Below, in pieces: positions 592 to 25,566 of a stretch of 64,000 nt of DNA (the first letter of the stretch is position 1; each line of letters begins with the position of its first letter). This stretch comes from Alphaproteobacteria bacterium. Lineage in GTDB: Bacteria; Pseudomonadota; Alphaproteobacteria; JAAXGF01. The position numbers and the translations under genes were made by a program. The stretch covers positions 864,001-928,000 of the forward strand of contig CAUVXB020000001.1 of NCBI GenBank assembly GCA_963555825.3, in the 5' to 3' direction. A model generated the notes under the pieces. The model searched no databases, was not told the origin of the DNA, and saw only the letters and a program-made list of their open reading frames with translations.

Positions 592-2356
592 GGCTGGATT
601 ATAATTGTGCATGTTTACTTTACGCGACCGACGGACTGGGGAATTGTTTGATCGCTGGTCCGATTTCGGGGACAAACGTCGGCGCCTGATGGAGCAATCC
701 TGGGCCGGGGTTTTTCGGAACCATCTGCTTGTCGAACTTCCGGTTGACGATCTTTGCCGTCACCTTGATGAACGCATGGGCCGACCATCGAAGGATCTAC
801 ACGTTGTCATCGGGGTCTTGCTTTTGCAGCAGCTGCACGATCTGAGCGATGCAGAGACCGTCGAGGCCCTGGCCTTCAATATGGCGTGGCACTATGCCTT
901 GGACGTGCGCAGCGAAGCGGACAGCTATTTCTGTGAGAAAACCCTGCGCAACTATCGCCGTCTGTTTATCGAACAAGGTCTCGATGAATTGCTGTTCCGG
1001 TGTTTGACGGATCGGCTGGTGCAGGGGTTCTCTGTCGATACCAGCCACCAACGCATGGATTCGACGGCCCTTCGTTCGGCAATGCGGGCGCTGACACGAC
1101 TTGGTATCGTTGTTGAGAGCATCTCGAAGTTTGCCCGTGAGCTTGAGCGATATCATCCCGGTCTGCACGAGCAGATCAGCAAGGAGGTGATCCGCCGCTA
1201 TGTCGATCGCGAGGGTAATGGCGCGTTCGCGAATACGGCGCCGAGTGTTTCAAAACGGCGCCTCGGCGAAGCGGGTCAGTATCTCCTAGCCCTGGTGCTG
1301 CAATTCCGTGACACGGCGGCGGCAAAGCTTTCCAGTTTTGCGATCCTGGAGAGGGTTCTGCGCGATCAGTTCGAGATCGTTGATGATGAGTATGGCGATC
1401 GTGACGCAACGCGCGCCGCGATTCGAGATCCAAAGGATGTGCCGTGCGATACCGTCGGCAATCCGGCCGACCCGGACGCGAGCTACAACGCGCACAAGGG
1501 TCAAGGATACATGGCGCAGATCGTCGAAACCTATTGTGAAGATGTCAGTAACGAGGCGGTTGCCGCGACACCGGACCTCATCACCCACGTGGAGGTCCAC
1601 AAGATGACGGTGCATGACGGCCATCGCTTAGCCGATGCGCTGGATGATCTGAGCGAGCGCGCGCTGACGCCGGCGGTGATGCTGGGTGATTCACATTACG
1701 GTTCCAGTGACAACATGGCTCTGACGCGCGAACAGAACATCAATCTCGTGGCGCCCGCACGACCGCCGAAAGGCGCCGTCTCGGGACGGTTGACGTTGGA
1801 GGATTTCACTCTCAACGAAGAAGGCTTGGTCTTGCGCTGTCCCAATAACGTCGAACCGGTTTCAGCCTCGCTCGCCAAAGCCAAGCTGCAGGCCCGTTTC
1901 GACCTCTCCATCTGCCAAAAATGTCCCGATATACTGCGATGTCCCGTGCAGGCGGCCAAGCGTGACGGCCAATTTTCCCGCTTTCAATATACCCCGGCCA
2001 GGGCTGCCAACCAAAAGCGCCGGCTTTATGAACAAAGCGATGCCTTCCGCAACGTCTACAGATGGCGGGCCGGCATAGAAGCGACCATGTCGCGATTAAA
2101 GTACCAGATGAACCTGGCTCACCTACGCATTCGCGGCATGCCGGCCATGCGCTACGTGGTCAATCTGCGTGCCCTCGGCCTCAATATCCGACGCTGCGCG
2201 GCAATCGCACCATAAAAAACGAAGCCAAGGAGAAGCCAAGGGTAGGTAATATCAGGTTTTATCCACCAGCAACGCGGAGACAGGCAAATATTCTTCACCG
2301 AACCGCAAAGACCTGTACAAGCACGCCATCGGCCAACAACTTTTTACCGCCCCGTC
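592..2356 (+). mobile_element. IS1182-like element copy 1; first 36 bp displaced by the upstream IS
   Basis: Matches nt 37-1801 of copies 2 and 3; right IR ACTTTTTACCGCCCCGTC ends at 2356. Confidence 0.92.
611..2215 (+). CDS. IS1182-family DDE transposase
   Basis: N-terminal GRPS..LLLQQLHDLSDAE (DUF772-like), MDST, GDSHYG, C-terminal YRWRAGIEATMSRLK. Confidence 0.88.
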   Translation: MFTLRDRRTGELFDRWSDFGDKRRRLMEQSWAGVFRNHLLVELPVDDLCRHLDERMGRPSKDLHVVIGVLLLQQLHDLSDAETVEALAFNMAWHYALDVRSEADSYFCEKTLRNYRRLFIEQGLDELLFRCLTDRLVQGFSVDTSHQRMDSTALRSAMRALTRLGIVVESISKFARELERYHPGLHEQISKEVIRRYVDREGNGAFANTAPSVSKRRLGEAGQYLLALVLQFRDTAAAKLSSFAILERVLRDQFEIVDDEYGDRDATRAAIRDPKDVPCDTVGNPADPDASYNAHKGQGYMAQIVETYCEDVSNEAVAATPDLITHVEVHKMTVHDGHRLADALDDLSERALTPAVMLGDSHYGSSDNMALTREQNINLVAPARPPKGAVSGRLTLEDFTLNEEGLVLRCPNNVEPVSASLAKAKLQARFDLSICQKCPDILRCPVQAAKRDGQFSRFQYTPARAANQKRRLYEQSDAFRNVYRWRAGIEATMSRLKYQMNLAHLRIRGMPAMRYVVNLRALGLNIRRCAAIAP

Positions 2357-2372
2357 GATCATCTCACATCAC

Positions 2373-3854
2373 TCAATCCGGGCTAACTGATAGGTTTGAG
2401 CCGTCACGCCGAAGCGCGCGGCCGGTACGCGCGCCCGTCGCCGCGCCCGATTGCCAGGCGATCGTGCCGTTGACGATGACCGTCTCGATGCCGGCGGCCG
2501 GCTGGATCGGGTCGTCGAAGGTGGCGCGGTCGATCACCGTTTCCGCGTCGAACACCGTGACGTCGGCGAAGGCGCCTTCTGTGATCGTGCCCCGGCCGGC
2601 GAGCCTGAACACCCCGGCCGGCACGCCGGTCATGCGGTGCACCGCTTCTTCGAGCGGGAACAACCCGAGATCGCGGCAATAGTGGCCGAGCACGCGCGGG
2701 AATGTGCCCCACAATCGGGGGTGCGGCTTCTCGTCGTGCGGCAGGCCGTCGGAGCCGATCATCGCGCGCGGGAAGGCGATGATGCGCTGCAGGTCGGCCT
2801 CGTCCATCGAAAAGTAAATGGCGCCGGCCGGCATCAGGCGCTCTGCGGCCGCATCGCGCGTTAGGCCCCAATCGGCGGCGATCTCACCCAGGTCGCGACC
2901 GGCGCAGTCGGGGTGCGGCGTCGACCAGGTGACCAGCACGCGCTCGCTCTTCTCGATGAAGTCGGGCAGCAGCGATGTCGAGCTGGCGATGTAGGGATAG
3001 ACGTCGAGGTCGAGCGTCTGTCCCTGCTGGGCGGCGGCAATGTGCGGCAATGTCTCGCGCGTCCGGCCCCAGTTCTGACGACCGTTGCACTTGTGGTGCG
3101 AGATGACGACTCGGACGCTAGCGCGCCGGCCGGTCTCGACGGTCTCCTCGATCGACTCGATGACGCGGTCGCCCTCGTCGCGCATATGCGTGGTGTAGAT
3201 CGCGCCGGCCGGCGCCAGACGTTCGGCCAGCGCCACCACCTCGTCGGTCGGCGCGGCCATGGCGGTCGGATAGGCGAGCCCGGTCGAGAGCCCGATCGCG
3301 CCGGCGTCGAGCGCATCGTCGAGCGCCTCCGCCATGCGCGCGATCTCGTCGGCAGTTGCCGGCCGCGCGAGGTCGTCCATCGCCGCGGCGCGCAGCGTCG
3401 AATGACCGACCAGGCAGGCGAGATTGACGGCCGGCGGTTCACGGTCGAGCGTGTCGAGATAATCGCCAAAACACGCGAAGCGGTACCAGTCGCGGTCGCC
3501 CAACAAATCCATCGGCGGTGGCGGCGCGCGGTCGAGCACCAGCGGCGCGAGGCTGACCCCGCAGTTGCCGACGACCACCGAGGTGACGCCCTGGCTCACC
3601 TTGGGCGTCATGCCGGGATTTGAAAGCGCGAGCCGGTCGTCATGGGTATGCGCGTCGATGAAGCCCGGCGCGACGATGCGCCCCGCGGCGTCGATCGTGA
3701 CGTCGGCCGCAGTACCGCCGAGGTCGCCGACGGCGGCGATGCGGTCGCCGCTGATCGCAACGTCGGCGCGACAGCGCGCGGCACCGGTGCCGTCGATCAC
3801 CTCGCCGCCCCGGATCAGCACGTCACAGCGTTCGAGTTTCTTGCCTTCCATCAC
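2373..3854 (-). CDS. N-acyl-D-amino-acid deacylase (D-aminoacylase, amidohydrolase)
   Basis: PGFIDAHTHDD, GVTSVVVGNCGVS, GSDG..PHPRLWGTFPRVLG. Confidence 0.9.
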   Translation of the reverse strand: MMEGKKLERCDVLIRGGEVIDGTGAARCRADVAISGDRIAAVGDLGGTAADVTIDAAGRIVAPGFIDAHTHDDRLALSNPGMTPKVSQGVTSVVVGNCGVSLAPLVLDRAPPPPMDLLGDRDWYRFACFGDYLDTLDREPPAVNLACLVGHSTLRAAAMDDLARPATADEIARMAEALDDALDAGAIGLSTGLAYPTAMAAPTDEVVALAERLAPAGAIYTTHMRDEGDRVIESIEETVETGRRASVRVVISHHKCNGRQNWGRTRETLPHIAAAQQGQTLDLDVYPYIASSTSLLPDFIEKSERVLVTWSTPHPDCAGRDLGEIAADWGLTRDAAAERLMPAGAIYFSMDEADLQRIIAFPRAMIGSDGLPHDEKPHPRLWGTFPRVLGHYCRDLGLFPLEEAVHRMTGVPAGVFRLAGRGTITEGAFADVTVFDAETVIDRATFDDPIQPAAGIETVIVNGTIAWQSGAATGARTGRALRRDGSNLSVSPD

Positions 3855-16300: not shown

Positions 16301-19094
16301 TTACTTCGGTGTTCCGCCCTCGCCAACCACGACGAACGGTGCCCAGAACATGGGGTGGGCGAAATGATCTTTCCCCTCGGTCGCCATCATCGCCAGCATG
16401 GAACGGCGCAGCGCCTCTGCGCGACCGACGCCCGGCGCCTTCGCCATCTCGTCGAGCATCCCGGTGGTGATGGCGACAGCCGCCTCGGAGTTCACGGACC
16501 AGTGCGAGACCAACAGTGCCCGTGCCCCGGCGTAGAAGAACGCCTTGGCGAGGCCCGACAACCCCTCGGCCCCCGGCGTGCCGTCGGCGGCGGCGGTGTT
16601 GCAGGCCGACAGGATCACCCAGTCGGCGTCGAGGTCGAGGGTGGCGATCTCGCTCGCCGTCAGCAGGCCGTCATCGGCCTCCGAACCCTCGTCGGGCGGC
16701 GTCAGCACCAGGGCTGGCTCGGCAACGCCCTTGAGATCACCGGCGACGAGGCCGTGGGTGGCGAAGGCGAGAATACGGTAGCTGGAGAGGTCCATGGAGC
16801 GCGCCTGCGTCTCGGTGGCGCGCTCCTGCAAGTAGACTGCCGTGTCATCGGCGCCCTGGGCCAACGCCAGCGACTTGATCTCGCCCGCCGTGTCGGGCAG
16901 CCGGGCCAGGTCCCGCACCGCACCGACATCGGCCACGACGCCGCGTGTAAACAGCGCAGCGACATCGATGCCCCGGCCCTTTCCAGGATCGCCCTTGAGC
17001 TTGGGGTCGCCGAAGCCGATGAATGGACGCGACGCCAGCGTGGCCTTGGCGAAGCGGCGCAGGGCGCGCAGCGACGAGACCGAAGGCAACACGGTCATGG
17101 CGTATTTCTTCGCCAGCCATTCGACATCGCGATAGGCCGAGAACTTCCGCACCCGGCCCTTGGGCTGCTCGGTAATCAGTACGCCAAGTGGCAGGCTCTG
17201 GAGCGCCCCATCGGGCACCACGAAGACGTGGCGCGCGCCTTCGAGCATCGGCGCGGCTGGAGCGAAGATTTGCTGGTAGAGCGCCACCGCCTCATCGACA
17301 TCGAAGGGCCGGACGTCGCCCAGGCTGCCGACGCCGAACTGATCGAGGCCAGCGCGCACGGACGTGACCGCATCCTCGATCTCCTGTCTGCCGACGTCGA
17401 GGTGGTGGAACGCCGCGTCGTCATGGCGGATCACCCAGAGGTAGGTTCTGTCGTCCCACACGACGTAGGTCATCAGGGCCTCGACGGGGCCGAGAAGGTC
17501 CTGGGTCTCGGAGAGGGAGAGCGGCCTTGGGCTGGCGAGTTCGGCGAACTCGGGAAAGTCCTGGGCGAGCCGCTCGCCGAGCCCACCGATACTCACGTCG
17601 AGCGCCGCAAGATCGTCGCGAAGCTTCGCCTCCGCCTCGCCGTCTCGCTTCTCGGGCGGCTCGCTGACCGCTTGCACCAGCCGGGCGTCGAGGCGTTGCC
17701 ACTGCTCGACGGCGTCCTGGTAGGCCCGCACGGTCCCCGCAAGCGCGTCATCGCCGGTCGCGAAGCGCGCGCCCATACGGGCGACCGCGCCAGCCGCGCT
17801 GGAGGCCTGGGCGAGTTGCCCAACATCGAAGGCTTCCGCAAACAATTCGGTGCGCCGCTCGGGTTCCTTTTCGATGATGGTCTCGACGATGTTGACGTGG
17901 TTCAAAAAGATGACGCGTATGCTTGTCTGCTCCTTGTGCGCCCCAGACGAGCCTGTCGCGCCCGCCCGTCCGGCACGAACCCGGTAGATGGTCGTCGCTC
18001 GGCGAAATTGATCCATAGCCGCCTCGTAGCGGCCTTGGGCGCGGTACAGCTCGGCAAGATTGTTGATGCTCAGGGCGACATCGGGATGATCCGGCCCGAG
18101 CGCCTTCTCCCGGATCGCCAGCGCCCGCTCGTAGAGCGGTTCAGCCTCATCGTATCGGCCCTGATCGTCGTACAGCGCGGCGAGGTTATTGAGGCCGTCG
18201 GCCACATCGGGATGATCCGGCCCGAGAGCCTTTTCCCAGATGGTCAGCGCCCGCTTGTTGAGCGGTTCCGCCGCCTCGTAGCGGCCCTGCACGCGGTACA
18301 GCGCGGCAAGGTTGTGGAGGCTCAGGGCGACATTGGGATGTTCCGGCCGGAGAGCCTTCTCCTGGATGGTCAGCGCCCGATTGTTGAGCGGCTCCATCTC
18401 CTCGTATCGGCCCTGGTCGTAGTACAGCACGGCGAGGTTATTGAGGCCGTTGGCCACATCGGGATGGTCCGGTCCGAGAGCCTTCTCCTTGATTGCAAGT
18501 GCCCGCTTGTAGAGCAGCTCCGCCGCCTCGTAGCGGCCCTGGGCGCGGTACAGCGCGGCGAGGTTGTTGAGGCTCAGGGCGACATCGGGATGGTCCGGCC
18601 CGAGAGCCTTCTCCTTGATTGCAAGTGCCCGCTTGTGGAGCGGCTCCGCCGCCTCGTAGCGGCCTTGGGCGCGGTATAGCTCGGCGAAGTTGCTGAGGCT
18701 CAGGGCAATATCGGGATGTTCCGGCCCGAAAACCTTCTCATCGATGGCCAATGCCCGCTTGTAGAGCGGTTCAGCCGCCTCGTATCGGCCCCGCTGGTGG
18801 TACAGCCCGGCGAGGTTGTTGAGGCTCGTGGCGACATCGGGATGGTCTGGCCCTAGAGCCTTCTCCCAGATGGCCAGCGCCCGCCTGTGGAGTGGCTCCG
18901 CCGCCTCGTAGCGGCCCTGATTGTGGTAAAGCTCGGCGAGGTTGTTGAGGCTTAGGGCGACATCGGGATGGTCCGGCCCGAATACCTTCTCCCGGATCGC
19001 CAGCGCCCGCCTGTAGAGCGGCTCCACCGCCTCGTAGCGGCCCTGGTCGTTGTACAGCGCAGCGAGGTTGTTGAGGCTCGTGGCGACATCGGGA
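16301..19094 (-). pseudogene. TPR-repeat + CHAT (caspase-like) protein, 5' end cut at the IS256 boundary
   Basis: About 8 tandem 42-aa repeats (GPDHPDVAxSLNNLA.LY..QGRY), CHAT FATHG...LSACNT; frame reads mid-repeat into the IS end at 19095. Confidence 0.85.
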
Positions 19095-19112
19095 GAGCTA
19101 TAACCGAATCTT

Positions 19113-20913
19113 GACGGGGCGGTAAAAAGTTGTTGGCCGATGGCGTGCTTGTACAGGTCTTTGCGGTTCGGTGAAGAATATTTGCCTGTCTCCGCGTTGC
19201 TGGTGGATAAAACCTGATATTACCTACCCTTGGCTTCTCCTTGGCTTCGTTTTTTATGGTGCGATTGCCGCGCAGCGTCGGATATTGAGGCCGAGGGCAC
19301 GCAGATTGACCACGTAGCGCATGGCCGGCATGCCGCGAATGCGTAGGTGAGCCAGGTTCATCTGGTACTTTAATCGCGACATGGTCGCTTCTATGCCGGC
19401 CCGCCATCTGTAGACGTTGCGGAAGGCATCGCTTTGTTCATAAAGCCGGCGCTTTTGGTTGGCAGCCCTGGCCGGGGTATATTGAAAGCGGGAAAATTGG
19501 CCGTCACGCTTGGCCGCCTGCACGGGACATCGCAGTATATCGGGACATTTTTGGCAGATGGAGAGGTCGAAACGGGCCTGCAGCTTGGCTTTGGCGAGCG
19601 AGGCTGAAACCGGTTCGACGTTATTGGGACAGCGCAAGACCAAGCCTTCTTCGTTGAGAGTGAAATCCTCCAACGTCAACCGTCCCGAGACGGCGCCTTT
19701 CGGCGGTCGTGCGGGCGCCACGAGATTGATGTTCTGTTCGCGCGTCAGAGCCATGTTGTCACTGGAACCGTAATGTGAATCACCCAGCATCACCGCCGGC
19801 GTCAGCGCGCGCTCGCTCAGATCATCCAGCGCATCGGCTAAGCGATGGCCGTCATGCACCGTCATCTTGTGGACCTCCACGTGGGTGATGAGGTCCGGTG
19901 TCGCGGCAACCGCCTCGTTACTGACATCTTCACAATAGGTTTCGACGATCTGCGCCATGTATCCTTGACCCTTGTGCGCGTTGTAGCTCGCGTCCGGGTC
20001 GGCCGGATTGCCGACGGTATCGCACGGCACATCCTTTGGATCTCGAATCGCGGCGCGCGTTGCGTCACGATCGCCATACTCATCATCAACGATCTCGAAC
20101 TGATCGCGCAGAACCCTCTCCAGGATCGCAAAACTGGAAAGCTTTGCCGCCGCCGTGTCACGGAATTGCAGCACCAGGGCTAGGAGATACTGACCCGCTT
20201 CGCCGAGGCGCCGTTTTGAAACACTCGGCGCCGTATTCGCGAACGCGCCATTACCCTCGCGATCGACATAGCGGCGGATCACCTCCTTGCTGATCTGCTC
20301 GTGCAGACCGGGATGATATCGCTCAAGCTCACGGGCAAACTTCGAGATGCTCTCAACAACGATACCAAGTCGTGTCAGCGCCCGCATTGCCGAACGAAGG
20401 GCCGTCGAATCCATGCGTTGGTGGCTGGTATCGACAGAGAACCCCTGCACCAGCCGATCCGTCAAACACCGGAACAGCAATTCATCGAGACCTTGTTCGA
20501 TAAACAGACGGCGATAGTTGCGCAGGGTTTTCTCACAGAAATAGCTGTCCGCTTCGCTGCGCACGTCCAAGGCATAGTGCCACGCCATATTGAAGGCCAG
20601 GGCCTCGACGGTCTCTGCATCGCTCAGATCGTGCAGCTGCTGCAAAAGCAAGACCCCGATGACAACGTGTAGATCCTTCGATGGTCGGCCCATGCGTTCA
20701 TCAAGGTGACGGCAAAGATCGTCAACCGGAAGTTCGACAAGCAGATGGTTCCGAAAAACCCCGGCCCAGGATTGCTCCATCAGGCGCCGACGTTTGTCCC
20801 CGAAATCGGACCAGCGATCAAACAATTCCCCAGTCCGTCGGTCGCGTAAAGTAAACATGCACAATTATAATCCAGCCGACTCTCATGAGGAATCGACTTT
20901 TTACCGCCCCGTC
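19113..20913 (-). mobile_element. IS1182-like element copy 2 (1801 bp), TSD GAATCTT
   Basis: 18-bp IR GACGGGGCGGTAAAAAGT at both ends; GAATCTT at 19106-19112 and 20914-20920. Confidence 0.95.
19254..20858 (-). CDS. IS1182-family transposase
   Basis: Identical translation to 611..2215. Confidence 0.88.
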   Translation of the reverse strand: MFTLRDRRTGELFDRWSDFGDKRRRLMEQSWAGVFRNHLLVELPVDDLCRHLDERMGRPSKDLHVVIGVLLLQQLHDLSDAETVEALAFNMAWHYALDVRSEADSYFCEKTLRNYRRLFIEQGLDELLFRCLTDRLVQGFSVDTSHQRMDSTALRSAMRALTRLGIVVESISKFARELERYHPGLHEQISKEVIRRYVDREGNGAFANTAPSVSKRRLGEAGQYLLALVLQFRDTAAAKLSSFAILERVLRDQFEIVDDEYGDRDATRAAIRDPKDVPCDTVGNPADPDASYNAHKGQGYMAQIVETYCEDVSNEAVAATPDLITHVEVHKMTVHDGHRLADALDDLSERALTPAVMLGDSHYGSSDNMALTREQNINLVAPARPPKGAVSGRLTLEDFTLNEEGLVLRCPNNVEPVSASLAKAKLQARFDLSICQKCPDILRCPVQAAKRDGQFSRFQYTPARAANQKRRLYEQSDAFRNVYRWRAGIEATMSRLKYQMNLAHLRIRGMPAMRYVVNLRALGLNIRRCAAIAP

Positions 20914-21001
20914 GAATCTTGTGTACGGCGTTGAAATGAAGGCGGCGTATCCTGGTGATTGTTGATGTCACCACTTGAGCTAAGCCAAGGAAGGATACGC
21001 C

Positions 21002-22246
21002 ATGAAAGAGAATACCGTTGTTGCTTTTCAAAACCCATCTGATTTTCAGAAAGATCCGTTGACGGAAGTCCTACAAGCTGGAGCTCGCGAGTTGTTGGCC
21101 CAAGCCGTTGAGGCCGAGGTCTCCGTGTTTTTGGGTAGCCATGCGGCGCTTGTTGACGCCGCCGGCCGCCGCCGGGTTGTCCGCAATGGATATCTGCCGG
21201 AACGCTTCATCCAGACCGGGATCGGCCCGGTGAGCGTGCGCCAACCCCGTGTGCGGGACCGGGGGGACGGCGCCATCCGCTTCACGTCGGCGATCCTGCC
21301 GCGCTATCTGCGCCGCGCCAAGAGCCTGGAAGACCTTTTGCCATGGCTGTATCTGAAGGGCATTTCCACCGGCGACTTCGGGGAAGCCTTGGCGGCGCTC
21401 CTGGGGAGCTCCGCGCCGGGGCTTTCGGCCTCCACGATCACCCGGCTGAAAGAGGTCTGGGGGGTTGAGGCGGAGCGCTGGCAACGGCGCGACCTCACGG
21501 CCAAGCGCTACGTCTATTTCTGGGTGGACGGCATCTATTTCAGCGCCCGCATGGAGGAAGAGAAGCAGTGCATCCTGGTGATCGTCGGGGCCACGGACAA
21601 GGGACAGAAGGAACTGATCGCCATCGCCGACGGCTATCGCGAAAGTGAGCAGTCCTGGCTCGAAGTTCTGCTCGATCTCAAGCGGCGCGGCCTTGAAATG
21701 GGTCCGCAACTGGCGCTCGGCGACGGCGCGCTCGGCTTCTGGAAGGCGCTCCGCCAAGTCTACCCAGGCGCCCGCGAGCAACGCTGCTGGGTTCACAAGA
21801 CGGGCAACGTCTTGAACAAGCTGCCCAAGGGTCTGCAAAAGAAAGCCAAGGGGCGCCTGCAAGACATCTGGATGGCCGAAACCAGGAAGGATGCCGAGAG
21901 CGCCTTCGACTTCTTCCTGGAAGCCTACGGGCCGAAGTACGACAAGGCCGCGGCCTGCCTGGCCAAGGACCGCGACGTCCTGCTGACGTTCTACGACTTC
22001 CCCGCCGAGCACTGGAAGCATGTACGCACGACCAACCCCATCGAGAGCACGTTCGCCACGGTTCGTCTGCGCACCTACCGGACCAAGGGCTGCCTGTCGC
22101 GCAAGACGGCGATGGCCATGGTCTTCAAACTATGCCAGTGCGCTCAGAGAAAATGGAGAAAACTCGATGGATCGAACCATCTCGCCGAGATCATTCGCGG
22201 CGTCAAATTCGTAGATGGAGAACGCCAGGATCGCGCCGCCGCATGA
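21002..22246 (+). CDS. IS256 (Mutator-like) transposase
   Basis: RNGY, LYLKGISTGD, FWVDGIY, GDGALGF, QRCWVHK, RTTNPIES. Confidence 0.95.
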   Translation: MKENTVVAFQNPSDFQKDPLTEVLQAGARELLAQAVEAEVSVFLGSHAALVDAAGRRRVVRNGYLPERFIQTGIGPVSVRQPRVRDRGDGAIRFTSAILPRYLRRAKSLEDLLPWLYLKGISTGDFGEALAALLGSSAPGLSASTITRLKEVWGVEAERWQRRDLTAKRYVYFWVDGIYFSARMEEEKQCILVIVGATDKGQKELIAIADGYRESEQSWLEVLLDLKRRGLEMGPQLALGDGALGFWKALRQVYPGAREQRCWVHKTGNVLNKLPKGLQKKAKGRLQDIWMAETRKDAESAFDFFLEAYGPKYDKAAACLAKDRDVLLTFYDFPAEHWKHVRTTNPIESTFATVRLRTYRTKGCLSRKTAMAMVFKLCQCAQRKWRKLDGSNHLAEIIRGVKFVDGERQDRAAA

Positions 22247-22266
22247 TCAGCCCATACACAACTTTT

Positions 22267-24067
22267 GACGGGGCGGTAAAAAGTTGTTGGCCGATGGCGT
22301 GCTTGTACAGGTCTTTGCGGTTCGGTGAAGAATATTTGCCTGTCTCCGCGTTGCTGGTGGATAAAACCTGATATTACCTACCCTTGGCTTCTCCTTGGCT
22401 TCGTTTTTTATGGTGCGATTGCCGCGCAGCGTCGGATATTGAGGCCGAGGGCACGCAGATTGACCACGTAGCGCATGGCCGGCATGCCGCGAATGCGTAG
22501 GTGAGCCAGGTTCATCTGGTACTTTAATCGCGACATGGTCGCTTCTATGCCGGCCCGCCATCTGTAGACGTTGCGGAAGGCATCGCTTTGTTCATAAAGC
22601 CGGCGCTTTTGGTTGGCAGCCCTGGCCGGGGTATATTGAAAGCGGGAAAATTGGCCGTCACGCTTGGCCGCCTGCACGGGACATCGCAGTATATCGGGAC
22701 ATTTTTGGCAGATGGAGAGGTCGAAACGGGCCTGCAGCTTGGCTTTGGCGAGCGAGGCTGAAACCGGTTCGACGTTATTGGGACAGCGCAAGACCAAGCC
22801 TTCTTCGTTGAGAGTGAAATCCTCCAACGTCAACCGTCCCGAGACGGCGCCTTTCGGCGGTCGTGCGGGCGCCACGAGATTGATGTTCTGTTCGCGCGTC
22901 AGAGCCATGTTGTCACTGGAACCGTAATGTGAATCACCCAGCATCACCGCCGGCGTCAGCGCGCGCTCGCTCAGATCATCCAGCGCATCGGCTAAGCGAT
23001 GGCCGTCATGCACCGTCATCTTGTGGACCTCCACGTGGGTGATGAGGTCCGGTGTCGCGGCAACCGCCTCGTTACTGACATCTTCACAATAGGTTTCGAC
23101 GATCTGCGCCATGTATCCTTGACCCTTGTGCGCGTTGTAGCTCGCGTCCGGGTCGGCCGGATTGCCGACGGTATCGCACGGCACATCCTTTGGATCTCGA
23201 ATCGCGGCGCGCGTTGCGTCACGATCGCCATACTCATCATCAACGATCTCGAACTGATCGCGCAGAACCCTCTCCAGGATCGCAAAACTGGAAAGCTTTG
23301 CCGCCGCCGTGTCACGGAATTGCAGCACCAGGGCTAGGAGATACTGACCCGCTTCGCCGAGGCGCCGTTTTGAAACACTCGGCGCCGTATTCGCGAACGC
23401 GCCATTACCCTCGCGATCGACATAGCGGCGGATCACCTCCTTGCTGATCTGCTCGTGCAGACCGGGATGATATCGCTCAAGCTCACGGGCAAACTTCGAG
23501 ATGCTCTCAACAACGATACCAAGTCGTGTCAGCGCCCGCATTGCCGAACGAAGGGCCGTCGAATCCATGCGTTGGTGGCTGGTATCGACAGAGAACCCCT
23601 GCACCAGCCGATCCGTCAAACACCGGAACAGCAATTCATCGAGACCTTGTTCGATAAACAGACGGCGATAGTTGCGCAGGGTTTTCTCACAGAAATAGCT
23701 GTCCGCTTCGCTGCGCACGTCCAAGGCATAGTGCCACGCCATATTGAAGGCCAGGGCCTCGACGGTCTCTGCATCGCTCAGATCGTGCAGCTGCTGCAAA
23801 AGCAAGACCCCGATGACAACGTGTAGATCCTTCGATGGTCGGCCCATGCGTTCATCAAGGTGACGGCAAAGATCGTCAACCGGAAGTTCGACAAGCAGAT
23901 GGTTCCGAAAAACCCCGGCCCAGGATTGCTCCATCAGGCGCCGACGTTTGTCCCCGAAATCGGACCAGCGATCAAACAATTCCCCAGTCCGTCGGTCGCG
24001 TAAAGTAAACATGCACAATTATAATCCAGCCGACTCTCATGAGGAATCGACTTTTTACCGCCCCGTC
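22267..24067 (-). mobile_element. IS1182-like element copy 3 (1801 bp), TSD AACTTTT
   Basis: Same IRs; AACTTTT at 22260-22266 and 24068-24074. Confidence 0.95.
22408..24012 (-). CDS. IS1182-family transposase
   Basis: Identical translation to 611..2215. Confidence 0.88.
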   Translation of the reverse strand: MFTLRDRRTGELFDRWSDFGDKRRRLMEQSWAGVFRNHLLVELPVDDLCRHLDERMGRPSKDLHVVIGVLLLQQLHDLSDAETVEALAFNMAWHYALDVRSEADSYFCEKTLRNYRRLFIEQGLDELLFRCLTDRLVQGFSVDTSHQRMDSTALRSAMRALTRLGIVVESISKFARELERYHPGLHEQISKEVIRRYVDREGNGAFANTAPSVSKRRLGEAGQYLLALVLQFRDTAAAKLSSFAILERVLRDQFEIVDDEYGDRDATRAAIRDPKDVPCDTVGNPADPDASYNAHKGQGYMAQIVETYCEDVSNEAVAATPDLITHVEVHKMTVHDGHRLADALDDLSERALTPAVMLGDSHYGSSDNMALTREQNINLVAPARPPKGAVSGRLTLEDFTLNEEGLVLRCPNNVEPVSASLAKAKLQARFDLSICQKCPDILRCPVQAAKRDGQFSRFQYTPARAANQKRRLYEQSDAFRNVYRWRAGIEATMSRLKYQMNLAHLRIRGMPAMRYVVNLRALGLNIRRCAAIAP

Positions 24068-24126
24068 AACTTTTGACAATAGCTCTTCGACATCGTGGCG
24101 GTAGCTCTAAAGTGCAGTAGGGCCGG

Positions 24127-24216: not shown

Positions 24217-25566
24217 TTGCGCATCCACGACGCCCGTTTCGAGACCGCCGACCGCGACACGGTGCGCGCCTATCAGCTCGAAAGGCTCAAAGCACTGCTC
24301 GCCAAAACCTGGGCGACCAACGACTTCTACCGCGCGCATTGGGCCAAGGCGGGTGTCGACATCGAGGCCATCGACTCGCTCGCCGCGTTCTCGGCGCGCG
24401 TGCCGACCGTCGAGAAGCAGGACTTCGTCGCCGACCAGGCCGACGACCCGCCGTTCGGCCGCCGCCACGCCCACCTGCTGTCGCTCGGCGTGTCCTATAC
24501 GGTATTCATCACCGGCGGCACCACCGGCCAAGGCGTCGAGGTTCACCTGCAGAGCAACGACGACATGAAGGGCACCGAGGAGATCTACCGCTACCAGTAC
24601 ACTTGGGCGGTGATCGCACCCGGCGCCCATACCTTCCTCATGTTGCCGATCACCATGATGGGCGGGGGGCGTATCGAATACGCCGGCGCGGTGGCCTTCG
24701 GGCTCTCGGTCAGCACCGTCGGCAACTATGACGCAGGCCGCAAGCTTGAGCTGCTGCGGCGCTTCCAGCCGACGGCGATCATCGCCAACACCTCCTACTT
24801 CGGCCACCTGGCGGCGGTCAGCGGCGAACGGCCGCCGCTCGATGGACTCAGCCACCTGTTCACCGGCGGCGAAGGCTCGGGACATGCCTATCTCGAGCGC
24901 ATCGAGCAGCAGTGGCAGGCGACCGTCTACGACCGCTACGGCAACACGCAGATGGGCAACGACCACATGTTCAGCTGCGAGGCCGGCATCGGTCCGGCCG
25001 ACCGCCCCGGCCTGCTGCACAACGTCGACCCGCTGGTCTACACCGAGGTGATCGACCCCGACACCGGCCGCCATGTCGCCGACGGCGAGGCCGGCGAGCT
25101 GGTGCTCACCAACCTCTACCGCCTGGATGCGCCGGTCGTGCGCTGCCGGGTGCGTGACCGCGCCGTCTACCACGAGGCACGCTATTGCGGTTGCGGGCGG
25201 CCCTTCGCCGGCGTCGAGGTCGCCTCGATCAGCCGGACCGACGACATGAAGAAGGTGAAGAACGTCAATATCTGGCCGCAGGCGGTCGAGAATGCCTTGT
25301 TCGCCGAGCCCCGGGTCGAGGACTTCGAGATCGTGTTGACCTCCGACGCGCGCGAGGCCGACACCGCCACCGCCCGCATCATGCCGCGCGAGACGCTGGC
25401 CGACGGCGACGCGGCGGGGCTCGCGGACCGCCTCGGCGAGGCCCTGCGGACGCGCGTCGGCATCCGCTTCGACGTCCAGATCATCGAACCCGGCAGCCTC
25501 GATCGTGGCGATTTGAAAGTGAGGCGCTGGAAGGACGAACGCATTCACCGGCATTCTACCGGCTGA
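24217..25566 (+). CDS. Phenylacetate-CoA ligase-family (PaaK-like) acyl-CoA ligase, paralog 1
   Basis: YQLERLKALL, TGGTTG, EVIDPDTG, GELVLTNL, RTDDMKKVKNVNIWPQAVE; TTG start after GGAAGG. Confidence 0.85.
   Translation: MRIHDARFETADRDTVRAYQLERLKALLAKTWATNDFYRAHWAKAGVDIEAIDSLAAFSARVPTVEKQDFVADQADDPPFGRRHAHLLSLGVSYTVFITGGTTGQGVEVHLQSNDDMKGTEEIYRYQYTWAVIAPGAHTFLMLPITMMGGGRIEYAGAVAFGLSVSTVGNYDAGRKLELLRRFQPTAIIANTSYFGHLAAVSGERPPLDGLSHLFTGGEGSGHAYLERIEQQWQATVYDRYGNTQMGNDHMFSCEAGIGPADRPGLLHNVDPLVYTEVIDPDTGRHVADGEAGELVLTNLYRLDAPVVRCRVRDRAVYHEARYCGCGRPFAGVEVASISRTDDMKKVKNVNIWPQAVENALFAEPRVEDFEIVLTSDAREADTATARIMPRETLADGDAAGLADRLGEALRTRVGIRFDVQIIEPGSLDRGDLKVRRWKDERIHRHSTG

Follow-up and report, generated by a model that had tools for sequence, protein, structure and literature searches.

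An 1801-bp insertion sequence (IS) resembling the IS1182 family very probably chooses its targets by reading DNA sequence, and the terminal repeats of another IS, of the IS256 family, would be its near-perfect half-sites. The structure under study lies in a 64,000-nt stretch of an alphaproteobacterial genome (GenBank assembly GCA_963555825.3, contig CAUVXB020000001.1, positions 864,001 to 928,000 of the forward strand), which we call the window and whose positions are used below unless marked otherwise. The source genome (G000) comprises 6.04 Mb in two contigs, C1 and C2, and the window corresponds to C1:864001-928000. Here two copies of the IS1182-like element interrupt both terminal repeats of a single IS256-family element, each at the same distance from the tip, and nearly all other termini of the element in this genome abut IS256-type repeats as well. 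The target specificity is real, general and apparently undescribed, and a search of the full-text literature, with ISfinder and TnPedia entries outside its scope, turned up no earlier case of IS256 repeats hit by an IS1182-like element.

The two copies show 0 differences over 1801 bp, lie on the same strand and end in perfect 18-bp terminal repeats (GACGGGGCGGTAAAAAGT). Both sit 11 bp inside the IS256 tip, with different 7-bp target duplications (GAATCTT on the left, AACTTTT on the right; Table 1). An earlier note on this DNA, made from the sequence alone, had claimed that removing the copies together with one duplicated 7-mer each restores both IS256 repeats, that the 7-mer represents repeat positions 12-18 on either side, and that the copies stand in direct orientation around an intact IS256 transposase gene. 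Excision gives a 1375-bp element (GAGCTAT...ATAGCTC, 19095-24085) that matches, at 100% identity, 15 full-length copies which stand uninterrupted at other places in the genome; the 7-mer positions proved correct to the base, and the 414-aa open reading frame (ORF) is intact between two minus-strand copies. Since 13 of the 15 free full-length copies of this IS256 type, which we call type A, bear 8/9-bp target duplications, the IS256 ends are placed correctly. The note had also seen a potential composite transposon in the arrangement. No single duplication flanks the whole unit, as the outer 7-mers differ (GAATCTT vs AACTTTT), and for that reason the unit shows no sign of having moved as a whole. 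We may reasonably infer that the IS256 element lost its mobility once its repeat was split.

All copies in the source genome were then mapped and those in IS256 repeats at offset 11 counted, as the note had proposed. The termini were searched with the element's 30-nt ends at up to three mismatches, and their flanks were classified by script. Among the 74 termini found (38 left and 36 right), 38 are flanked by GAGCTAT plus 11 nt, 32 by the inner side of an IS256 repeat, two by a degraded repeat and two by a unique site, which places 72 of the 74 against IS256-type repeats. The offset is exactly 11 in 70 of them; the degraded pair belongs to one copy in an IS256-type repeat with 1-nt deletions. 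Besides type A, the genome carries a type B IS256 element with 76% DNA identity to type A. The IS1182-like element occupies 13 of 38 type A left repeats, 14 of 43 type A right repeats, 10 of 15 type B left repeats and 0 of 16 type B right repeats. The repeat types that are hit provide 96 sites in all, out of ~6 million in the genome, and with 72 of the 74 termini in IS256-type repeats, chance cannot explain the pattern. In 20 cases the left end of the element faces the tip and in 17 the right end does (p=0.74); type A shows all four repeat/orientation combinations, and type B has insertions in both orientations. No comparable hits were found in an 83-copy element, the most abundant IS seen in this genome. 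Also present are ~35 copies of distant IS256-family elements (~25% protein identity), and their tips (GGAGATGTCCC or GGCGATGTCCC) occur at none of the 74 flanks. The third copy in the window sits at a single-copy, non-IS look-alike site (GAACTATATCC followed by GATCATC), so the element is not restricted to repeats. Reading this site as a fourth IS256 repeat type (D) was rejected, the site being unique and non-IS.

The claim that the two window copies are independent insertions also held: the 7-mers differ, and each matches across its own copy. Among the 26 full-length copies in the genome, which show 108 variable columns (18 of them informative), identical single-nucleotide polymorphism (SNP) haplotypes are shared by type A and type B repeats and by both orientations. 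The history of the locus was read from Logan contigs of other sequencing runs (codes X1, X2, X15 and X16). In X1 and X16, ...GACTGACGGG is joined directly to TTCGACATCGTGG, representing the IS-free site, and in X2 IS256 is present on the same chromosomal flank, its right repeat uninterrupted. The order of events at the locus thus runs from the IS-free form (X1, X16) through IS256 with a free right repeat (X2) to the occupied form of the source genome. X15 has the junction of the element's right end and the flank with only 8 nt on the element side, and was not counted as bridging. The insertions are independent because the duplications differ, the haplotypes cross repeat types and the right repeat is uninterrupted in X2. 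With just 11-18 bp of homology outside it, the insert cannot be spread by gene conversion from one IS256 copy to another. On the right the IS256 tip is followed by TTCGACATC, one half of a 9-bp duplication, whose partner half lies beside another IS256 copy at C1 ~1661667 (region ~1661637-1661675), ~774 kb away. This points to a later large rearrangement between IS copies that separated the flanks of the structure, which has no IS256 duplication of its own because its flanks were parted in this way.

The earlier note had pictured a hyperparasitic IS that reads either the repeat sequence or the IS256 transposase bound to it. The first half of this proposal holds genome-wide, in other genomes and in metagenomes, while the bound transposase is disfavoured, chiefly by a metagenome-assembled genome (MAG) labelled Amylibacter (G041). 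This MAG has 21 loci with 99%-identical copies of the element, and gave 0 matches to an IS256 transposase with the transposase from the window as query. After in-silico removal of the element, several of its sites lie within long ORFs. The 42 non-redundant half-sites of G041 have G-18 in 26, C-8 in 27, R-7 in 36, A-6 in 37, T-2 in 41 and Y-1 in 39, with A-13, T-12 and A-11 also evident; they form a degenerate version of the IS256 tip plus 7-mer (G…ATA..C followed by RANNNTY). A weight matrix built from these half-sites and run over the source genome ranks the tip of the type A right repeat 6th and that of the left repeat 52nd of 12.08 million positions, and still 34th and 206th when the training sites starting with GAG are left out. 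When the scores of the two arms are added together, the type A repeats (right and left) come 13th and 73rd of 6.04 million sites; next are the left repeat of type B (165th), the unique site in the window (186th) and the right repeat of type B (291st). On these sequence comparisons, targeting appears to follow the DNA sequence, with no need for the IS256 transposase. Two further explanations were rejected. The loose consensus GAG-N7-C-RANNNTY-G occurs 475 times in the source genome and does not by itself explain the specificity, and a guide encoded by the element is not indicated, as neither strand of the element contains an internal GAGCTAT- or GAGNTAT-like motif.

Related loci number 54 in other genomes. 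Copies with 97-99% protein identity are found in long-read MAGs labelled Amylibacter, Paracoccaceae, Rhodospirillales and Alphaproteobacteria (loci L031-L062, L064, L066-L068, L070, L075 and L083), with a fragment in one MAG labelled Thermodesulfobacteriota; their distribution across family labels is due either to binning error or to horizontal spread in recent times. Further genomes have relatives at 67-88% identity. IS256-type tips or inner repeats recur at many of the flanks, and IS256 transposase similarity lies within 2.5 kb at only 11 of the 54 loci. Matching 7-bp duplications border 21 of the 49 copies with both ends visible. In a verified set of 19 insertions outside the source genome that have a 7-bp duplication and do not adjoin another copy, 13 carry GAG at -18..-16 on at least one arm (~0.6 expected), and the duplication reads RANNNTY in 15. 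Relatives in Rhizobiaceae (73% identity) lie in ordinary ORFs with GAG at the same distance. Tandem copies exactly 7 bp apart were found in three different MAGs (L034, L067 and L082). They fit second hits on the retained tip plus 7-mer half-site, the other side being the element itself, and because the inner half of the repeat is no longer in place where these hits land, that half is dispensable. The abutted ends of the tandem pairs could also matter for the transposition pathway.

We also noted eight structures in which 18-bp IS256 tips stand on both sides of the element and the IS256 body is gone. These tip-element-tip structures lie at C2 767366-770330 and C2 3360197-3363431 of the source genome and at L063, L067, L072, L073, L081 and L198, and one of them combines a type A tip with a type B tip. 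The L198 structure lies on a Microvirga sp. VF16 plasmid; the copy between its two tips is 71% identical, and a 9-bp repeat (ATGGAGTGG) flanks the whole. The structures likely arose by recombination between two copies. The reverse nesting occurs as well: at C2 2831924-2835108 a full type A copy (2832172-2833546) lies inside an IS1182-like copy, with a 9-bp duplication (CCAGGTTCA).

An exact scan of metagenomes with the 18-nt tip of the element matched 113 stretches, and the 80 loci returned from it gave 80 half-sites, of which 77 are non-redundant and N-free. GAG stands exactly 18 nt from the element in 39 of the 77, against a chance expectation of 1/64 (binomial p=3e-49), and 34 of these 39 read GAGNTAT. 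Another 11 half-sites are of the inner-repeat type, four of them with IS256 transposase similarity in the 200-nt flank, and two abut another copy of the element. The 12 nt that follow the tip, in the element interiors, take 54 different forms, so many variants of the element share the targeting habit. Pooled over all sources except the Amylibacter MAG, there are also 54 distinct targeted 18-mers, with the consensus GAG-C-T-A-T-R-G-C-C followed by R-A-A-A-G-T-T. Coded runs labelled sponge metagenome contain ~80% of the sampled words of the window.

We consider it very likely, judging from the sequences of the sites, that the transposase itself picks its targets by reading DNA. It would make a 7-bp staggered cut in a core C-RANNNTY-G, with a strong preference for sites where, on one side or both, GAG(C/T)TAT occupies the positions 18 to 12 nt outward from the cut, so that the full target would be long and loosely two-fold symmetric (GAG-N8, RANNNTY, N8-CTC). 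The tips of the targeted IS256 subgroup (GAGCTATNNCC followed by RAANNTT) would then be near-perfect half-sites and the best natural match. Nearly all insertions would lie 11 bp inside IS256 repeats because the genome is full of such IS256 copies, and entry would occur in either orientation because one good half-site suffices and the target complex is two-fold symmetric. The GAG...TAT half-site would presumably be contacted directly by the protein, and the element may gain a 'safe haven' by landing there.

Several observations weigh against this reading. The type B right repeat is empty while the left one is well occupied (0/16 vs 10/15; Fisher p=7e-5). It reads GAGCTATGTCC GAAAGTT GG... and fits the consensus; among the four repeats it has the poorest matrix rank, but a gap in occupancy as sharp as this is not predicted. 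About a dozen AT-rich non-IS sites in the source genome outscore the best repeat, and all are empty. Elsewhere, six of the 19 verified insertions have no GAG arm, 25 of the 77 metagenome half-sites fall in neither class (the GAG arm is missing at a quarter to a third of the sites outside the source genome), and 28 of the 49 MAG copies are without matching duplications, which may be due to recombination or misassembly. The Logan contigs are short and break at repeats, and none bridges the 5-kb structure on a single molecule. Selection against genic insertions must also inflate the share seen in repeats, but it cannot create a fixed offset.

Rather than the DNA itself, the element might recognise repeat-bound IS256 transposase or some intermediate of IS256 transposition. 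This would accord with an offset from the tip that stays fixed although the 7-mers differ, and the asymmetry between the type B repeats, which the matrix leaves unexplained, could reflect differential occupancy by the transposase. We nevertheless regard it as highly improbable, given the 21 loci at look-alike sites, several in ordinary ORFs, of a MAG without an IS256 transposase match, the copy at a unique non-IS look-alike site in the source genome, and the Rhizobiaceae relatives in ordinary ORFs with GAG at the same distance. The second hits that adjoin an existing copy, where the inner repeat half is displaced, argue in the same direction. The survivorship of insertions made with a weak preference for a RANNNTY core, with genic insertions purged and those in other IS neutral, is the least probable explanation we considered. 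It would not produce a single fixed offset within the repeat, nor the avoidance of other abundant IS in the source genome (the 83-copy element and the ~35 distant IS256 copies), nor GAG exactly at -18..-16 at non-IS sites. In its favour, the G041 copies lie mostly outside IS256-type repeats (33 of 42 half-sites classed as 'other'), which implies that persistence outside repeats is possible under a different selection or supply of targets.

Between these two in probability, and so also very doubtful, is the amplification of founder insertions, in which IS256 with its passenger still moves via the outer tip or the IS256 transposase mobilises the tip-flanked element in trans. Some copies of the same configuration do have private SNPs in common, such as those at C1 362140 and C1 493416, and two of the eight tip-element-tip structures have an 8-9-bp outer direct repeat (L198, given above, and L067, ACGGGCGG). 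Such repeats are equally expected if the IS256 body is lost in situ by recombination between two direct copies. Amplification is further opposed by the full set of four repeat/orientation combinations in type A and the two orientations in type B, the identical haplotypes in different repeat types, the 54 distinct targeted 18-mers over genomes and metagenomes, the same consensus at non-IS sites, and the unoccupied repeat of this very locus in X2. Hitch-hiking on the IS256 transposase was accordingly rejected: the outer repeat is present in only two of the eight structures and in-situ deletion fits equally well, which leaves it no specific support.

The inserted element is probably, on its domains and layout, an autonomous insertion sequence of the DDE type, belonging to a large and unnamed clade of IS1182-like elements. 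Its 536-aa transposase matches PF05598 (DUF772, N-terminal; 47.4 bits), PF13751 (DDE_Tnp_1_6; 50.7 bits) and PF01609 (DDE_Tnp_1; 35 bits), all over the cut-offs. The best family match is NCBIfam NF033551 (IS1182 family transposase; E 5.6e-51), with 173.9 bits where the curated cut-off is 270, and annotated IS1182 transposases on plasmids are 26-28% identical to the protein. The layout, 1801 bp with a single ORF and 18-bp perfect repeats, is that of IS1182 elements, which are about 1.3-2 kb long. The label given in the earlier note is therefore kept loosely: this is the best-scoring family and shares its domains, but with a score below the cut-off and such low identity we call the element IS1182-like and not a certified member. 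The protein clade comprises 802 clusters at E≤1e-30, and its close homologues are named just 'transposase' or 'hypothetical protein' by their sources. No close copy was found in 40 relatives of the source genome; the best match has 37% identity (G040), at a locus that is uninformative on targets because it lacks clear terminal repeats. Membership of the host element in the IS256 family is clear from a transposase above the cut-offs (PF00872, Transposase_mut, Mutator-type, 199.1 bits; NF033543 in Table 1), an 8-9-bp duplication and imperfect repeats (GAGCTATAACCGAATCTTGTGTA / GAGCTATTGTCAAAAGTTGTGTA).

Table 1. Features of the nested insertion and its surroundings, in window positions unless marked otherwise
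Feature	Position	Strand	Remarks
1418-bp element with rve-type integrase ORF	1-591 (C1 863174-864591)		interrupts the third IS1182-like copy
IS1182-like element, third copy	592..2356	+	element positions 1-1765; remainder left of the window past the 1418-bp insert
7-bp duplication of the third copy	2357..2363		GATCATC; directly 3' of the amidohydrolase gene
Amidohydrolase gene	2373-3854	-	
TPR/CHAT-domain gene	16301-19093	-	start cut off
126-bp tandem repeat units	18018-19199		at least eight
IS256 type A left terminal repeat, outer 11 bp (tip)	19095..19105	+	GAGCTATAACC; ends verified by 8/9-bp duplications in 13/15 free copies
Target duplication, left copy, 7 bp	19106..19112		GAATCTT; IS256 repeat positions 12-18
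IS1182-like element, copy 1	19113..20913	-	1801 bp; 18-bp perfect terminal repeats
Transposase ORF of copy 1	19254-20864	-	536 aa from TTG; ATG two codons in
Target duplication, right copy, 7 bp	20914..20920		GAATCTT
IS256-family element body	20921..22259	+	Transposase_mut; NF033543 320 bits, cut-off 150
IS256 transposase ORF	21002-22246	+	414 aa; intact
Target duplication, left copy, 7 bp	22260..22266		AACTTTT; reverse complement AAAAGTT = right-repeat positions 12-18
IS1182-like element, copy 2	22267..24067	-	1801 bp; identical to copy 1
Transposase ORF of copy 2	22408-24018	-	
Target duplication, right copy, 7 bp	24068..24074		AACTTTT
IS256 right terminal repeat, outer 11 bp (tip)	24075..24085	-	GAGCTATTGTC on the minus strand
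One half of the 9-bp duplication from IS256 insertion	24086..24094		TTCGACATC
AMP-binding enzyme ORF	24217-25566	+	phenylacetate-CoA-ligase-like domain pair

Further features lie around the structure (Table 1). To the left, the TPR/CHAT-domain gene, whose 5' part contains the tandem repeat units, runs into the IS256 tip at 19094/19095 and has lost its start through either the IS256 insertion or a later rearrangement. To the right, the ORF of the AMP-binding enzyme begins ~130 bp from the IS256 end, and its upstream region abuts the IS. The 1418-bp element in the third copy contains an internal 18-mer that occurs 83 times in the source genome and is the most abundant IS mentioned above.

Target-specific insertion sequences are rare, and the classic hunters of terminal repeats, IS4321 and IS5075, are now known to be RNA-guided. 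The present element apparently has a specificity of ~18 bp per half-site that is read by protein; the enzyme is a DDE transposase of ordinary type, its targets are the ends of a different IS family, and the habit is conserved across a large environmental clade. The selection of long targets by DDE transposases can be studied here in a natural system. The element is also a concrete case of parasitism of one IS on another, in which one third to two thirds of the eligible IS256 ends of a single genome are taken. For annotation it carries a warning, since split IS256 ends and tip-element-tip relics can readily be mistaken for new elements or for longer repeats. Tentatively, the results can be joined in a wider picture, which is possible and which we would not yet call probable. 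An unnamed DDE clade would be a specialist parasite of an IS256 subgroup, reading ~18 bp of the tip, splitting the repeat and disabling its host; pairs of copies would delete the IS256 body by recombination and leave tip-element-tip relics; such predation would regulate the IS256 load in marine Alphaproteobacteria; and the retained 18-bp tips might let the IS256 transposase move the parasite.

The nearest DDE analogue is IS231A of the IS4 family, which has a preferred target in the terminal repeats of Tn4430, chosen by a consensus of sequence or structure; family, target consensus and duplication length all differ from those of the present element. IS4321 and IS5075, of the IS1111 group in the IS110 family, insert in a single orientation and are not known to make a target duplication. 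Like them in the 38-bp Tn21-type repeats, our element habitually takes the same position within the terminal repeats of a different transposon family, and that end is expected to be disabled. Unlike them, it has DDE-type Pfam domains, enters in both orientations (20:17), makes a 7-bp duplication and has no internal guide motif; IS4321 and IS5075 use a DEDD recombinase guided by an element-encoded RNA (PMC11187229). With the IS1182 family our element shares the DUF772 and DDE_Tnp_1_6 domains, a single ORF and short terminal repeats. Within that family, IS1272 replaces stem-loops without duplication and some members are reported to target palindromic sequences (PMC5678879), and ISPse1 makes a 4-bp duplication (PMC3281130); in contrast to both, our element makes a regular 7-bp duplication and has a long asymmetric half-site. 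ISAjo2-like elements of the IS1202 family lie at a fixed distance from dif/pdif sites (PMC10132070). The likeness is that of an IS at a fixed distance from a defined protein-binding site, and the difference is that ISAjo2-like elements are found in one orientation beside Xer sites, whereas the target here is the end of another IS, entered in either orientation.

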